Origin: Terriglobia bacterium
Lineage (GTDB): Bacteria; Acidobacteriota; Terriglobia; 2-12-FULL-54-10
Reading direction: 5' to 3'
NCBI GenBank assembly: GCA_963666975.2
Contig: CAXVYR010000004.1
Coordinates: 1,760,001-1,824,000 of the forward strand
Length of the DNA: 64,000 nucleotides
A program made the position numbers and the translations under genes. Under the pieces are notes generated by a model. The model was not told where the DNA came from, searched no databases, and saw only the letters and a program-made list of their open reading frames with translations. Shown here one piece after another: positions 3,400 through 9,041 of the stretch. Within the stretch, counting starts at the first letter, position 1, and the number at the start of each line of letters is the position of its first letter.

Positions 3400-4430
3400 T
3401 AGAGCATTTCTCCCGATGGTGTATACTGTGGAACGAGGTTCTCTGGCGATCCAAGAACACCATGGCGAAAGCATACTCGGACGATTTGCGTCGGAAGATT
3501 TTGGAGGCGTACGACAGGGAGTTAGGGAACCTGCGGGAGTTGGCGGAACGGTTTGGCGTGAGCTATGCCTGGGCGCGGAAGATTTCCTGGCAGCGGCGGC
3601 GAACGGGTCGGATGGAGCGGGTGGAGCAGCGACACGGCTCGCCGAGCCGGGCGACGGCGGAAGTGGAAGCGCGGTTGCGCCGCCTGTTGCGGGAGCAGCC
3701 GGACCGCACGCTGGTGGAGTTGCAGCAGGGGTTATGGGAAGCCGAGGGGGTGCAGTTCAGTATTCAGCATCTGTGGCGACTGCTCCGGCGGATGGGCTTG
3801 CCGCTAAAAAAAAGTCGCTCCGCGCCCAGGAGCAAGACACGCCGGAAAACCGGGAGCGCCGCGAGGCGTGGCAGGAGCAGAGCCAGCTGATGGATCCCCG
3901 GCAGTGGGTGTTTGTGGACGAGCGAGGCGCGACCACCCAGATGACCCGGCGCTACGGTCGCGCCCCTCGCGGGGAACGGATGCGGGAAGCTACGCCCGCC
4001 GCCCACTGGAGCACACTGCCGCTTCTGGGAGCGATGAGCACCGAGGGATTGTTGGCGACCCTGACCGTGGAGTCGCCCACCGACGGAGATGTCTTTTTGG
4101 CTTACCTGGAACACGTGTTGTGTCCCCGGCTGGAACCGGGCCAGATCGTGGTCATGGACAACCTGGGGGCGCATAAAGTTCAGGGAGTCGGAGAACTCAT
4201 CGAGGCCACCGGAGCCCAACTGCGGTACTTGCCGCCGTACTCGCCCGACTTCAACCCGATAGAACCATGCTGGGGGAAGGTGAAACAGAAGCTCCGTTCG
4301 CTGAAGGCCCGCACCGTGGACGCGCTGCAGGAGGCGATCTCCGAAGCCATCGCCACGATCACCCCCAACAACGCCTCCGCCTGGTTCGCCCATTGCGGCT
4401 ATGATCTACACTAACAGGAGAAATGCTCTA
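3400..4430 (+). mobile_element. IS630-family insertion sequence
   Basis: Terminal inverted repeats TAGAGCATTTCTCC / GGAGAAATGCTCTA, both ends in a CTAG context (TA duplication). Confidence 0.92.
3462..4414 (+). CDS. IS630 transposase, two ORFs joined by -1 frameshift at A8G (3806-3814)
   Basis: orf[14 protein letters not shown] domain; orf[30 protein letters not shown] motifs. Confidence 0.9.
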
Positions 4431-4588: not shown

Positions 4589-5626
4589 ATGAATTCTTAT
4601 GACGTGATCGTTGTCGGAGGAGGCCCCACCGGGCTGGCCTGCGCTATTGAGGCCAAGCGGAGGGGGTTGACGCATCTGGTGTTGGAAAAGGGCTGCGTGG
4701 TGAACTCTCTCTACCGCTATCCGGTCAACATGGTCTTTTTCACCACGCCGGAGCTGCTTGAGATCGGCGAGCTTCCCCTGGTGTGCCAGCGGGAAAAGCC
4801 GACCCGCCTGGAGGCGCTAAAGTATTACCGTCTGGCCGCCCGGCACTTTGAGCTAAACATCCACCAATACGAGCGGGTGGAGAAAATCCGAGGCTCGGAT
4901 GGAGCCTTTGAATTTTCGACCCGCGACCGCCTGGGTGTTCCCCAGCACTACCGGTCGAAGAAAGCGATTCTTGCGACCGGATACTACGACCTGCCGAACC
5001 GGATGGGGATTCCGGGAGAAGACCTGCCCAAGGTCTCGCACTACTACAGCGAAGCTCACCCTTACTATGATTCCGACGTCGCCGTCATCGGCGGAAAAAA
5101 CTCAGCCGCCGAGGTGGCGCTCGATCTCTACCGCCACGGCGCACGCGTGACGCTGATTCACCGCCAGGCGGCGGTTTCAGACCGCGTCAAATACTGGGTC
5201 CGCCCGGACATCGAGAACCGCATCCGCAAGGGAGAGATTCAGGCCTTTTTCAATACACAGGTAACGGAGATCCTTCCCGACTGCATCCGGCTGGCCCCGG
5301 CGGAGGGAGCCGCGAAGGGAGTTGGAGTTAATGATAAGGGAGAGGCACAGACGCTGCAGAACGACTTCGTGCTGGCGCTGACGGGCTACCATCCGGACAT
5401 GGAGTTCCTCCGGAGCGAGGGCGTCGAGATGGAGCCAACCCGCATGCGTCCCCGCTGCCATCCGGAAACTTTAGAGAGCAACGTGGCCGGGCTGTATCTG
5501 GCGGGCGTGATTATTGCGGGCCTGGAAACTGCGGAAATTTTTATTGAAAACGGCCGCTTTCACGGCAAGCAGATCGTGGCCGATATCGCCGCCAAGCTCA
5601 AAAGCCATTCGTCGTCTTCCGGGTAG
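4589..5626 (+). CDS. ypdA: YpdA-family FAD-dependent (putative bacillithiol) disulfide reductase
   Basis: GGGPTG, YPVNMVFFTTPELLEIG, ATGYYD, GGKNSA, FIENGRFHG. Confidence 0.88.
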   Translation: MNSYDVIVVGGGPTGLACAIEAKRRGLTHLVLEKGCVVNSLYRYPVNMVFFTTPELLEIGELPLVCQREKPTRLEALKYYRLAARHFELNIHQYERVEKIRGSDGAFEFSTRDRLGVPQHYRSKKAILATGYYDLPNRMGIPGEDLPKVSHYYSEAHPYYDSDVAVIGGKNSAAEVALDLYRHGARVTLIHRQAAVSDRVKYWVRPDIENRIRKGEIQAFFNTQVTEILPDCIRLAPAEGAAKGVGVNDKGEAQTLQNDFVLALTGYHPDMEFLRSEGVEMEPTRMRPRCHPETLESNVAGLYLAGVIIAGLETAEIFIENGRFHGKQIVADIAAKLKSHSSSSG

Positions 5627-5662
5627 TCCGGCAGCTCTCTGCTGCCGGGATTCCTACAAAAC

Positions 5663-6388
5663 CTATTTCTCCGCAGCCGCCACGTGCAGTCCGCATTCTT
5701 TTTGGAGGTCCTGTTCCCACCACCAGCGGCCCGCGCGGGGATTTTCTCCCGCCTGCGTCGGGCGCGTGCACGGCAAGCAACCGATGCTGGTGAAGCCCTT
5801 CTCATACAAGGCATGGCTCGGAACGTTGTGGACCTTGATGTAATCGGCGAGCTGCTGGTCGGTCCAATCGGCGATAGGGTTCAGCTTGACGATGCCGTTA
5901 TTCCCCGCATCGGTTTCGATCTTGCTGATGGCGGAGCGCGTCGCCCACTGGTCCCGGCGCAGGCCCGTCACCCAGCAGTCCACCCCGGAGAGAAATTTCT
6001 TCAGCAGGTTCACCTTCCGCACGCCGCAGCATTCGTGCCGGTTTTCCGTGCTCTGGTAGAACAGGTTCAGGCCCTTGGAGCGCACCATGGCCTCCACCTC
6101 CGCGGAATCCGGGCAAAGAATTTCCAGGCTCATGCCGTATTGATCCCGCACGCGGTCCATCATGTCGTAAGTTTCCTGATGCAGACGGCCTGTGTCGAGC
6201 GTGAAAACGCGCACCTTCGGCTGAATGCGCCACGCGATATCCAGCACCACCATGTCTTCGGTCTGGAAGCTGGTGGCGAGCGCCATCTTGGGATGGAAGC
6301 GGTTGAGCGCCCAGCCCAGCACCTCTTCCGCCGATTGATTCACGAACTCTTTCTCCAGTTTCTGGACTTCTCCTGTAGATAACACCAT
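5663..6388 (-). CDS. cysH: APS/PAPS reductase (4Fe-4S type)
   Basis: LDTGRL, CCGVRK, SIGCLPCT, GRWWWE, ECGLH. Confidence 0.93.
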   Translation of the reverse strand: MVLSTGEVQKLEKEFVNQSAEEVLGWALNRFHPKMALATSFQTEDMVVLDIAWRIQPKVRVFTLDTGRLHQETYDMMDRVRDQYGMSLEILCPDSAEVEAMVRSKGLNLFYQSTENRHECCGVRKVNLLKKFLSGVDCWVTGLRRDQWATRSAISKIETDAGNNGIVKLNPIADWTDQQLADYIKVHNVPSHALYEKGFTSIGCLPCTRPTQAGENPRAGRWWWEQDLQKECGLHVAAAEK

Positions 6389-6484
6389 AGATATTTCCTC
6401 GCTCCTACATTTTCAGAATGATTTCAAACTCGAACCAACAAGAGTGGCCGACGCAGAAAGCCTGCCGCAGAAGGTCTTCCTGAG

Positions 6485-7687
6485 TTATTTGCCTCCGGCT
6501 GCTGCCGCCGCCATGCTCTCAATCAGAATCCGTCCCACTTCCTCCCGTGTAAACTCGGGCGGAGGCAGCAAGCCTTCCCGCAGCATGTCTCGCACCTGAG
6601 TGCCGCTCAACTGGAGGTGGGACTCCTTGCCGTGGGGACATGTCTTGAGAGTCCCCATGCCGCCGCACGACTTGCAGAAAAAGACCATGTCAAAGAACAG
6701 CGGCTCGATCCCCAAATCCCCGGCGGGAAATTGCCGAAAGATCTCCTGGGCCTCAAACGGCCCGTAATAGTTGCCCACGCCTGCATGGTCGCGTCCCACG
6801 ATGAAATGAGTGCAGCCGTAATTTTTCCGGACTAAGGCATGAAAGATCGCCTCCCGCGGGCCGGCATACCGCATCCATGTAGGGTAGAGCGCCAGCAGGG
6901 TCCTCTCCGGAACAAAGTAATGATCGATCAAGGCCCGGTAGCACCGGAGCCGCACTTCGGCAGGTATGTCGTCGGATTTGGTCTCCCCCACCAGGGGATG
7001 AATCAGGATGCCGTCGCAGCCCTCGAGCGTCACCTTCAGCACGTACTCGTGGGCACGGTGAATGGGGTTCCGTGTCTGGAAACCGGCCACACGCTTCCAT
7101 CCACGGTCTGCAATCACCTGCCGGGTCTCCCGGGGCACGGCAGGATAACCTTCATAGGGATGCGGCCGCCATCCGGGAAAGACGCTCACCTTGCCTCCCA
7201 GGGCGGTGTCCCCGCTGCCGTGGAGCCATGCCACGCCGGGATGCTTCTCCTCTTTGGTGCGAAACACCTGCCCGGCATACTCCGACTTCGGCAATGGGAA
7301 TTTTTCTTCCATGTGGAGAACCCCTACCGGGTCCGCGCCGGAGTCATACAGAAGCACATTGGCGCCCGGCTTCCAGTCCTTCGCTTCATTTCCTACCAGC
7401 AGAACGACCGGGATGCTCCACACCAAGCCGGAGCCCAACCGAAAATCGCGCAGCACGCTCTGTACTTCGTCGCGGTTTTGAAAGCCTTCCAGCGGACTGA
7501 AGGCCCCTTCGCCGAGAAGGTAGAGGTCGGAGAGCTGGCGAAAATCCAGCTTTAGGCGAGGCAGTTCCCCCGCCCGGCCGGTCCAGTCGGCGGCCTCTTC
7601 GGCGCTGAGCATGCGATTGACCAGCCGCCCGCCGTGTGGTTCCCAGCTACTTTTGTTTCCGTCGTCGTTGCTCACGCTTACCCCCAA
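6485..7687 (-). CDS. sat: sulfate adenylyltransferase
   Basis: PHGGRL, FQTRNPIHRAHE, MRYAGPREA, VGRDHAGVG. Confidence 0.95.
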   Translation of the reverse strand: MGVSVSNDDGNKSSWEPHGGRLVNRMLSAEEAADWTGRAGELPRLKLDFRQLSDLYLLGEGAFSPLEGFQNRDEVQSVLRDFRLGSGLVWSIPVVLLVGNEAKDWKPGANVLLYDSGADPVGVLHMEEKFPLPKSEYAGQVFRTKEEKHPGVAWLHGSGDTALGGKVSVFPGWRPHPYEGYPAVPRETRQVIADRGWKRVAGFQTRNPIHRAHEYVLKVTLEGCDGILIHPLVGETKSDDIPAEVRLRCYRALIDHYFVPERTLLALYPTWMRYAGPREAIFHALVRKNYGCTHFIVGRDHAGVGNYYGPFEAQEIFRQFPAGDLGIEPLFFDMVFFCKSCGGMGTLKTCPHGKESHLQLSGTQVRDMLREGLLPPPEFTREEVGRILIESMAAAAAGGK

Positions 7688-7736
7688 ATTTCCCTATTGA
7701 AAGATGATTCCGTTACCGAACACCAAATAACCGCCT

Positions 7737-7774
7737 GAAAACAAAAATCCCGCCGATTCAGTTGTACCGGCGGG
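7737..7774 (-). terminator. intrinsic terminator/attenuator upstream of sat
   Basis: Stem CCCGCCG/CGGCGGG (7774-7768/7755-7749) followed by AUUUUUGUUUU on the minus strand. Confidence 0.75.
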
Positions 7775-7815
7775 CCCGTTTCCTTCCTGACTGCTCAGAT
7801 GCTATTGCGCGTCTT

Positions 7816-7908
7816 TTATCCGGCTGCGTATTCCGTCTGAGGGCACCTTCGATACGACTCCCTGCAAGGACAACAACAGCCCCTCTCGAAGGCGAGTCTT
7901 AACGGCAT
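7816..7908 (-). CDS. Cys-rich leader peptide (30 aa) of the sat-cysH operon
   Basis: MPLRLAFERGCCCPCRESYRRCPQTEYAAG*, located between promoter and terminator. Confidence 0.7.
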   Translation of the reverse strand: MPLRLAFERGCCCPCRESYRRCPQTEYAAG

Positions 7909-7916
7909 GACAGTGT

Positions 7917-7945
7917 AGATTAACAAAGATTACCGGGTGCGTCAA
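7917..7945 (-). promoter_or_regulatory. sigma70 promoter of the leader/sat-cysH transcript
   Basis: TTGACG-17 bp-TAATCT with extended TG; ATG of the leader 8 nt downstream. Confidence 0.65.
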
Positions 7946-8025
7946 TATGGCAACTGCGTCAATAGATGAAACGGCAACAGCGCTAACGGTCAAAGAAAGA
8001 AGCGTCTATAGAAGCTGCTCGCCTG

Positions 8026-8739
8026 CTATTCCACGAAGACCACTTCCGACGGGAGTGTTTGCCGCTCTTCCGAGGGGAGTGCCTGCCGCTCCCCTGGGGG
8101 AACTTCCTCTAACGTACGGAACGACACCGGCCGGGTCAGTTCCAGCACGATCTCGCTTCCGGCGGGCAACACCGCGTCCTTGCCTCTTTTGAAGATCCTG
8201 TGGAACAGGGCGACGGCGCCCACGGCTCCGGCGCCAATCAAGGCGCCCTTGCCCCCGCCCAGGGACGCCCCAATGCCGGCGCCCACGGCGGCTCCGGTCC
8301 CTACCGTCTTCCCGCTGATGCCGTCCTTGCCGGGGCCCGTGATGGTTCCCTCGTCCGGGTCCACGTCGATCTCTCCGCCGGTCTGCGCGCCGGTCACCGA
8401 CGCCCGCAAGGAGAGGGTGCGACCATCCGGGAAGGTCAATTTTTCAGGGCGCAGTTGCATCTGAGCCTTGCCCTTCACCCGTCCGGGAGTTTTCATGCCG
8501 GCCAGCGTGCCTTCCACCACGCTTCCTATAGGAAGCGCCTCCCGTTCGTTAATGAAGACCGGGATCACCAGGCGAGCGGTGAACGGGTCGCCCGCGTTGC
8601 TTTCCTTTGTGCTGAGCGTCGTCTCCAGCACCACGCGAAGTTCGGTGCCAGCCGGCATGACAATTTCCTCTGCTGGAGCCGGGGCTGCCATTCCCCAGCA
8701 AGCAAACAGGACCCCTGCAATTCCTATGGCCTTGTTCAT
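8026..8739 (-). CDS. secreted TrbI/VirB10-like domain protein
   Basis: Signal peptide, MPAGTELRVVLETTLST, GDPFTARL, Gly-rich GAAVGAGIG segment, LPAGSEI; purine-rich RBS. Confidence 0.7.
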   Translation of the reverse strand: MNKAIGIAGVLFACWGMAAPAPAEEIVMPAGTELRVVLETTLSTKESNAGDPFTARLVIPVFINEREALPIGSVVEGTLAGMKTPGRVKGKAQMQLRPEKLTFPDGRTLSLRASVTGAQTGGEIDVDPDEGTITGPGKDGISGKTVGTGAAVGAGIGASLGGGKGALIGAGAVGAVALFHRIFKRGKDAVLPAGSEIVLELTRPVSFRTLEEVPPGERQALPSEERQTLPSEVVFVE

Positions 8740-8866
8740 CCGATCTCCTCCCACTCTGGACATAAGCCGTATCCCGAAAAGTTGAGAGCCTCTGCCGTAA
8801 CTCCAATTTACCTCTTTGGTAGTATTAGACGCAAGAATTTCCCGGAAGGGAGCAGCGACGGTCCGC
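8735..8866. repeat. direct repeat copy 1 (start and upstream region of TrbI-like gene)
   Basis: 132 bp aligning ungapped with 10766-10897, about 17 mismatches by manual count. Confidence 0.9.
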
Positions 8867-8984
8867 AGCGCCGATCTGTAGAGATTTGATCCGCCCTCCC
8901 CCTTCCGGTCACTCACAGATACCCCTTACTGACTGAGGTGAGAGGCTAAGCCATTTTCAGGGTTGGTGTAGCGCCGCCGCCAAA

Positions 8985-9041
8985 GTAGGGACAGGCCTCC
9001 AGGCCTGTCCTCTCAAGGGCAGGCAGGAATGCCTGCCCTAC
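8985..9041. repeat. GTAG-type REP doublet
   Basis: GTAGGGACAGGCCTCCAGGCCTGTCC ... GGGCAGGCAGGAATGCCTGCCCTAC, two inverted palindromic units. Confidence 0.7.

Follow-up and report, generated by a model that had tools for sequence, protein, structure and literature searches.

A predicted cysteine-codon attenuator upstream of sat-cysH in a Terriglobia genome, and its recurrence before genes of sulfate assimilation

Ribosome-mediated attenuation is classically represented by the leader peptides of the E. coli trp, his, thr, leu, ilv and pheA systems. In Firmicutes, sulfur and cysteine genes are controlled by S-box (S-adenosylmethionine, SAM) riboswitches and by T-boxes, in which a large conserved RNA senses its ligand or an uncharged tRNA. 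The Acidobacteria are a dominant phylum in soil for which few genetic tools exist, and we know of essentially nothing on how they regulate sulfate assimilation. Leaders rich in cysteine codons have been described in other phyla. In M. smegmatis, polycysteine leaderless small open reading frames (sORFs) at Ms5788A and other loci attenuate translation via sequestration of the ribosome-binding site (RBS), a translational mode that the same preprint sets against terminator-based attenuation (Canestrari et al. 2020, bioRxiv 10.1101/834739). Cysteine leader peptides were also predicted in Mycobacterium, P. acnes and B. longum 'without obvious terminators' (Seliverstov et al. 2005, PMC1262725), and uORFC-8-2, located upstream of cysS in Rhodobacterales, has been predicted to be an attenuator in which tandem Cys codons are combined with a terminator that has a U run (Brewer et al. 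2021, PMC8632094). Here, a cysteine-rich leader located upstream of the sat and cysH genes was examined in a 64,000-nt stretch of a Terriglobia bacterium (GenBank assembly GCA_963666975.2, contig CAXVYR010000004.1), referred to as the window and corresponding to positions 1760001-1824000 of contig C4 of the genome designated G000. The RpoB of G000 is 67-70% identical, across almost the entire protein, to that of three metagenome-assembled genomes (MAGs) titled Blastocatellia or Acidobacteria, whereas a Nitrospirota MAG and an Armatimonadetes MAG are less similar or match in pieces only, and G000 is accordingly regarded as a probable member of Acidobacteriota. From analysis of the sequence we consider it probable, at roughly three chances in four, that this leader controls sat-cysH as a ribosome-mediated transcription attenuator, through which the availability of charged tRNA-Cys would be sensed.

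The leader was compared with those of two congeners, G002 (sat 93% identical) and G001 (sat 87% identical). Its component parts, in window coordinates, are as follows.

7940..7945, minus strand: -35-like hexamer TTGACG, read from the sequence; invariant in G000, G001 and G002
7917..7922, minus strand: -10-like hexamer TAATCT (TAAACT in G001), 17 nt past the -35 and 8 nt ahead of the ATG; putative function
7816..7908, minus strand: leader sORF MPLRLAFERGCCCPCRESYRRCPQTEYAAG, 30 codons plus stop codon TAA (7818-7816), with ATG at 7908-7906
7886..7894, minus strand: segment 1, CGCCUUCGA, the 5' arm of a stem around the Cys run, pairing with 7852-7844
7870..7878, minus strand: three consecutive UGU Cys codons (sORF codon positions 11-13), the proposed stalling site
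7841..7855, minus strand: segment 2, GUAUCGAAGGUGCCC, alternative partner of segment 1 or of the terminator 5' arm
7749..7777, minus strand: segments 3 and 4, intrinsic terminator hairpin with stem 7774-7766/7757-7749, of which 7777-7764 is also the antiterminator partner
7738..7747, minus strand: terminator U tract UUUUUGUUUU, 10 nt, from sequence reading and terminator scan
6485..7675, minus strand: sat (sulfate adenylyltransferase), the first gene of the proposed regulated unit, with a GTG start at 7675 (Pfam ATP-sulfurylase 3.6e-94, PUA_2 4.8e-43)
5663..6388, minus strand: cysH-like (phospho)adenosine phosphosulfate reductase, the second operon gene (Pfam PAPS_reduct 2.9e-44)

Reading of the minus strand confirmed most of what an earlier note on this DNA had proposed from the letters alone, namely the TTGACG and TAATCT hexamers at a spacing of 17 nt and an ATG 8 nt further on, with no purine-rich Shine-Dalgarno sequence ahead of it. 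The sORF of 30 residues, five of them Cys, and the three UGU codons were likewise as claimed, except that the run lies at 7878-7870, one base from the place that the earlier note implied; the two remaining Cys codons are both UGC (7866-7864 and 7845-7843). The 9-bp stem that had been proposed to enclose the run (7894-7886/7852-7844) consists of nine standard pairs (CG, GU, CG, CG, UA, UA, CG, GC and AU), with an energy of -11.3 kcal/mol as an isolated helix, and the claim of a GC hairpin with a U tract, followed by sat and cysH, was borne out by the terminator scan and by Pfam. The scan placed the hairpin at 7774..7749, with nine pairs (seven of them G-C), a loop of 8, the tail ATTTTTGTTT and a folding energy of -17.3 kcal/mol, the terminator ending 63 nt from the start of sat. 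The open reading frame (ORF) that follows the cysH-like gene is on the opposite strand, and the operon is therefore taken to be sat-cysH. A second terminator-like match, at 7893..7879, was rejected, being merely the U-rich Cys run acting as a tail, and a 63-aa ORF that overlaps the leader sORF (7802-7993) has no Pfam family match. Searches with the covariance models of Rfam 15 returned two chance matches only for 7400-8300 (E 0.56 and 4.5), and none at E ≤ 0.1 for six loci with sister leaders. As a separate observation, a direct repeat, TATTGACGCA, is present on the minus strand at 7964-7955 and 7947-7938 (17 nt from start to start), the second copy including the -35-like hexamer; both copies are kept in G002, one of them as ATTGCCGCA, and one is kept in G001. 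The repeat may represent a protein-binding site or a duplicated -35.

Conservation of the Cys run in relatives, which the earlier note had put forward as a check, was found in both congeners, where the run is in frame. The leader peptide of G001, MPFRLTFEMGCCCPCRESYRRCPQTDYAVE (beginning MPFRLTFEMGCCCPC), is identical to the window peptide at 25 of 30 positions. In G002, a 2-nt insertion introduces a stop codon straight after CCCP, such that the predicted peptide, MPLRLAFEMGCCCP, has 14 residues; the 27 nt past this early stop, segment 2 included, are identical to those of the window, and this stretch therefore appears to be kept as RNA as opposed to peptide. In the three-genome alignment, almost no variation is seen from the -35-like hexamer, through its spacer of 17 nt and the gap of 8 nt ahead of the ATG, to segment 1, the Cys run and segment 2, or in the terminator stem; indels occur in the stretch that separates segment 2 from the terminator, whose loop differs at two bases. 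Two of the substitutions keep pairing: a G-to-A change in G001 converts a G-U pair of helix 1:2 (between segments 1 and 2) to A-U, and the 7841-7777 pair of helix 2:3 changes from C-G to U-A in G002. Such changes are few because only three genomes, close kin, are available for comparison. The gene upstream of the leader in G002 is a different, divergent gene, and the leader can therefore be assigned to sat.

The recurrence of Cys-run sORFs before sat was examined across the class. A sat match was present in 90 of 301 class genomes (a tally that includes three unpublished genomes, from which no regions were taken), and 92 upstream regions of 500 nt each were compiled, 35 from the initially found loci and 57 fetched, with one 110-nt piece dropped. 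A leader was counted where an ATG frame contains three or more Cys codons in a row, with the start at most 45 codons before the run and the stop at most 45 codons after it; earlier criteria, which relied on whichever start codon lay furthest upstream and limited the length, missed loci L103 and L107 and were revised for the final count. Cys-run sORFs were identified on the sense strand in 14 of the 92 regions and on the antisense strand in none (0/92), the 14 comprising three from the window's own genus, ten from family f5 and one from family f7. A fifteenth leader, MPSNHSKPAATRTAERSAMVCCCICCCRSTGSGGVFIG, with a terminator, is present in G010, a member of the same family as the window genome whose sat is 74% identical; it is located about 1.1 kb upstream, ahead of the gene that precedes sat, and thus beyond the 500-nt limit. 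Conversely, 79 sat loci of other phyla (from 80 loci at 48-58% identity) contained no Cys-run sORF on either strand. When triple-residue runs in sense-strand sORFs before sat were scanned residue by residue, Cys was the commonest of all residues (13/92, compared with 0 antisense), although it accounts for 1.03% of codons in long ORFs.

Three of these sat leaders have features of their own. At L107 (G259, family f7), the sORF MKDQIQKTTSCCCASCCCDATCCCCACCCAVCCCTPASSGWILTS, about 230 nt upstream of sat, has 16 Cys codons in five runs, and is enclosed by a stem of -26 kcal/mol (p = 0.000 against shuffles) with a terminator after it. At L013 (G025) and L162 (G171), both of family f5, Cys-run sORFs ending …ACACCCCLC and …SACCCRIC stop some 50-60 nt short of a fused sat gene of about 600 aa that has a GGAG-type site at its start, and no terminator is obvious; these two may represent a translational variant like the mycobacterial one.

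Runs of at least three Cys codons are numerous in G000 as a whole (657 over all frames), with 15 only in short ORFs located outside every ORF of at least 100 aa. That filter missed a leader before a TauE-type permease gene, which was recovered by a terminator-anchored scan; the latter listed 17 sORFs, and contexts were looked at for the three sulfur leaders. Among these three of the 17 terminator-linked sORFs, the units of promoter, sORF, terminator and gene all precede genes of sulfur assimilation. The two that accompany the sat leader are as follows.

C4:1085345-1085286 (sORF), with the unit extending to 1085180 (loci L174/L175): sir leader MRGKSHLRRIMCCCCCCCV with a strong terminator, before a 717-aa NIR_SIR sulfite reductase
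C4:1670943-1670827 (sORF), minus strand: TauE leader MRFCYSKPANTQTMVSGQMACCCMCCCTSAGAGGSGLN (…MACCCMCCC…) with a terminator of -23.2 kcal/mol, before a TauE/SafE-family permease
C4:1670943-1670760, equivalent to locus L206 6943-6760, minus strand: extent of the TauE unit

The sir leader of G000 has a -35/-10 pair, the -10 ending 6 nt ahead of the ATG. Import of sulfate by the TauE-type permease is suggested by the similar leader of G010, which is placed before the gene that precedes sat. The three leaders of G000 are alike in design only. A 250-aa ORF with no Pfam family lies directly after the sulfite reductase gene (L174 4292-5044, minus strand) and may be a further member of that operon. 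Two further features were observed in passing: a DDE_3 transposase gene is located in the window at 3416-4414, and a 34-codon frame (RENITFWNWVPREPKK…CCCRWWI) is found in dozens of identical copies over all large contigs of G000, and is evidently a highly repeated short element.

A wider view of the sir leader was obtained from the 203 of 301 class genomes with a sir match (unpublished rows included), from which the best 30 loci were taken, 28 of them with upstream DNA. Strict Cys-run sORFs precede sir on the sense strand at nine of the 28 loci and on the antisense strand at one, and Cys is again the commonest residue in triple runs of sense-strand sORFs (9/28, against 1 antisense). None of the loci of families f4 (0/12), f6 (0/2) or f13 (0/1) has a strict sense-strand Cys-run sORF before sir, and one of the f5 sir loci does. 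In the window's own family, a Cys-rich sORF and a terminator are present before sir at all 12 loci that have upstream DNA; in eight of these leaders, three to eleven Cys codons are grouped in runs, and in three the run is split (CSRCC, CC..CC and CTCC). The consensus structure obtained with RNAalifold for the 12 leaders comprises a two-part stem enclosing the Cys run, together with the terminator, and 8 of its 17 pairs have changed on both sides. The proportion of cells that are paired in it is 87.5%, compared with 79.6% in shuffles (0 of 500 reach the observed value) and at most 60.8% with the partners slid. This covariation is regarded as support and not as proof, because the alignment tested is also the one from which the structure came, and its sequences are related.

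Pairing between the terminator 5' arm and the stretch from the Cys run to the terminator was assessed as the best duplex relative to 300 dinucleotide shuffles of that stretch. The antiterminator duplex beats the shuffles (p ≤ 0.05) in eight of 12 sir leaders and in seven of 13 sat leaders. For the sat leaders of family f5, the antiterminator partner lies 7 nt past the Cys run, and the energies range from about -15 to -26 kcal/mol. The outcome is weaker for the stem around the Cys run, which beats its shuffles in four of 12 sir and two of 13 sat leaders. The terminators of the sister leaders of the genome and family are strong, at -15 to -28 kcal/mol.

Codon choice within the leaders is also distinctive. 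UGU, which is read by wobble, is the minor Cys codon, at 27% of Cys codons in ORFs of at least 300 aa, and yet in 11 sir leaders 44 of the 65 Cys codons are UGU, as are all three codons of the run in the window leader; G000 has one tRNA-Cys gene, with anticodon GCA. With regard to the start, the sister leaders have TTGACA or TTGACT throughout at the position equivalent to the -35-like hexamer, and the -10-like hexamer lies 6-9 nt from the ATG in the window leader and in five of 12 sir leaders, and 6-11 nt from it in nine of the 12. The 8-nt gap of the window leader is kept in G000, G001 and G002. Such short spacing (6-11 nt) fits a leaderless or nearly leaderless start, and a leaderless start is accordingly plausible for the window leader, as judged from hexamer spacing and the lack of a Shine-Dalgarno sequence. 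It is not a general feature of the leaders: three sir leaders have a distance of 14-16 nt, and in the TauE leader and the f5 sat leaders the distance is of that order or greater. Two metatranscriptomes, available as assembled contigs only, were compared with 5500-9000 of the window and left 7745-7907 uncovered. One 200-nt contig (run X1, no mismatch, depth about 4) matches 7908-8107, its end coinciding with the A of the ATG; contig ends do not equate to RNA starts or ends, and nothing is drawn from the position of this one.

The attenuator interpretation of the earlier note is supported by the in-frame conservation, by the occurrence of the same design before sat in other families and by the two further sulfur operons. 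In the scheme that we propose, transcription would begin at the ATG (7908) or slightly ahead of it, and the 30-codon sORF would be translated by a ribosome. With cysteine plentiful, the ribosome would pass UGU-UGU-UGU and segment 2 would be either covered by it or re-paired with segment 1, in which case the terminator (hairpin 7774-7749 and U tract) would form and RNA polymerase would stop before sat. With cysteine scarce, the ribosome would stall with a Cys codon in the A site, in which position segment 1 would be under it (given the footprint assumed); segment 2 would then be free to pair with 7777-7764, the terminator would be blocked and sat-cysH would be transcribed. At the window locus this kinetic scheme rests on analogy with the better-supported sister leaders, together with the two pair-keeping substitutions.

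A number of observations count against the scheme. The exact leader is found in three genomes only, all close kin. A sigma-70 promoter scan called no promoter at the leader, where the hexamers were taken from reading, because TAATCT fits the TATAAT consensus at three of six positions only. The co-directional upstream gene, which ends at 8026, has no terminator between it and the leader, and with a contig that covers 8107-7908, read-through from upstream is possible. The search for an antiterminator that the earlier note had suggested gave a divided result: a 12-bp helix (7855-7841/7777-7764) is present in nascent folds whichever of the three Cys codons is occupied by the ribosome, but at -14.2 kcal/mol this helix 2:3 is no better than dinucleotide shuffles (mean -13.9 kcal/mol, p = 0.42). 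Helix 1:2 is similarly undistinguished from shuffles (p = 0.29), as is the whole-leader minimum free energy (MFE; z = -0.73). Indeed, the MFE fold of the ribosome-free nascent RNA (to 7758) already contains helix 2:3, along with another 5' hairpin, and the role of segment 1 as an anti-antiterminator is thus not compelled by thermodynamics. The stop codon at 7818-7816 is 23 nt past segment 2, so a ribosome at the stop would leave segment 2 uncovered, unlike in the trp model. Among the sir leaders of the family, that of G003 (locus L182) has an eleven-codon TGY run in the +1 frame relative to the conserved ATG, with poly-Leu in the ATG frame. The sir match of G003 has an internal TGA, and no sat match was found in that genome, which points either to a decaying pathway or to indel errors in the assembly.

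The lack of any advantage of the whole-leader fold and of the window antiterminator over shuffles would suit a controlling factor that is not the ribosome, for example a small-molecule riboswitch or an RNA-binding protein, or else a constitutive partial terminator or insulator, the Cys run then being a by-product of U/G-rich sequence. The upstream gene without its own terminator and the direct repeat TATTGACGCA, which could be a protein site, are also compatible with this. It is nevertheless unlikely, given that no Rfam family was matched, that the Cys frame is open from the ATG and occurs at 14/92 loci in sense as opposed to 0/92 in antisense, that Cys leads all residues in triple runs, and that leader and terminator stay with sat in G002 despite the different divergent neighbour. 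Translational control of the mycobacterial kind, in which a stalled ribosome would open the sat RBS and the hairpin would be incidental or a partial terminator, has precedent at Ms5788, where polycysteine leaderless sORFs act in this way (bioRxiv 10.1101/834739), and finds a parallel in L013 and L162, where Cys-run sORFs are close to the sat start with no obvious terminator. For the window locus we rate it as distinctly unlikely, as the terminator there is canonical (nine pairs, seven G-C, a 10-nt U tract) and invariant in three genomes, sat starts more than 60 nt past it, and the sister leaders have strong terminators.

Five Cys in 30 residues, 25 of which are identical in G001, could feasibly denote a functional small Cys-rich peptide, for example a metal or redox binder, whose place before sat is coincidental or reflects co-regulation. 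This is very unlikely in view of the G002 peptide, which is cut to 14 residues with the RNA beyond the stop remaining identical; moreover, the Cys run is all that the window peptide has in common with those of the other leaders (sat, sir and TauE), the run is located in the loop of a conserved stem, and the units precede sulfur-assimilation genes only, in the contexts looked at. Finally, an intergenic ORF with three Cys codons might by chance stand beside an ordinary terminator, runs of this length being common over all frames of G000. In-frame conservation, the reappearance of the design in other families and at three sulfur operons, and the absence of such sORFs from the antisense strand before sat and from other phyla render this explanation scarcely credible, and transcription attenuation by a ribosome reading Cys codons is the best-supported interpretation.

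At least three such units are present in G000, and these would jointly make up a regulon that responds to cysteine and has no protein regulator of its own. An extended version of this proposal, to which we would give even odds, is a 'cysteine ribulon' for sulfate assimilation in G000 and its relatives, in which the TauE permease, sat-cysH and sir each lie behind a poly-Cys sORF and a terminator, replacing a CysB-type regulator, with UGU codons tuning the sensitivity of the sensor; its sORFs would be devoid of Shine-Dalgarno sequences and perhaps leaderless. The units are unlike in sequence and hence probably arose several times. If the attenuator interpretation is correct, a protein-free, ribosome-read switch at three operons and in many genera would match the reduction of sulfur to the demand for cysteine, and cysteine-codon attenuation would reach its classical terminator form, beyond the Actinobacteria, in which the studied case is translational. 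It would also provide a rule for annotation, whereby an unannotated Cys-run sORF followed by a terminator flags sulfur-assimilation operons, including those of transporters of unknown substrate such as the TauE type. The value of the observations resides in the regulon-like spread, over many genera and three operons, in a phylum that has been little studied, and the degree of surprise for a specialist is likely to be moderate. In the full-text literature, with subscription journals outside the scope of the search, no paper was found that describes attenuation by a Cys leader in Acidobacteria or ahead of sat, cysH or sir, in agreement with the earlier note, which knew of no such description in this lineage. 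The principle itself is a textbook one and no new mechanism is proposed.

Compared with the classical attenuators, the sat leader likewise has a short ORF rich in codons for the end product, a terminator and a location before biosynthetic genes, and would have mutually exclusive helices 1:2, 2:3 and 3:4, the last being the terminator; the position of the ribosome selects the fold in the classical systems, and the same logic is proposed here. It differs in that it would sense cysteine and control genes of sulfate assimilation, has no Shine-Dalgarno sequence and may be leaderless. Furthermore, segment 1 is upstream of the regulatory codons, with the Cys run in the loop of the predicted helix 1:2, the stop codon is well past segment 2, and the host is a probable acidobacterium. 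The S-box and T-box systems share with it the use of premature termination in the leaders of sulfur operons, but the sat leader has no Rfam match, and the proposed sensor is a translated sORF. The resemblance to uORFC-8-2 is closer, the logic being the same and the layout nearly so, in that the Cys codons of uORFC-8-2 are inside the first of two stems. However, uORFC-8-2 is a prediction for cysS in Alphaproteobacteria with two Cys codons at about positions 14-15, whereas the leaders described here have three to sixteen Cys codons and precede genes of sulfate assimilation. Assignment of the sat leader to uORFC-8-2 was rejected, the downstream gene being sat and the three Cys codons of the run being at positions 11-13.

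The mycobacterial leaders share with the sat leader an unannotated first sORF that contains a run of Cys codons, has no Shine-Dalgarno sequence and is located before sulfur or cysteine genes. In mycobacteria, several independent loci per genome constitute a ribosome-read regulon, or 'ribulon', and several units are likewise present in G000. There is no sequence relationship between the two sets of leaders, which belong to different phyla, and the mycobacterial case studied is one of translation, in which the stalled ribosome prevents the downstream RBS from being hidden in a duplex, without terminators according to both papers, whereas the sat leader has a conserved, canonical intrinsic terminator. 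The sat leader is predicted to be a clean terminator-type counterpart of the mycobacterial translational system.

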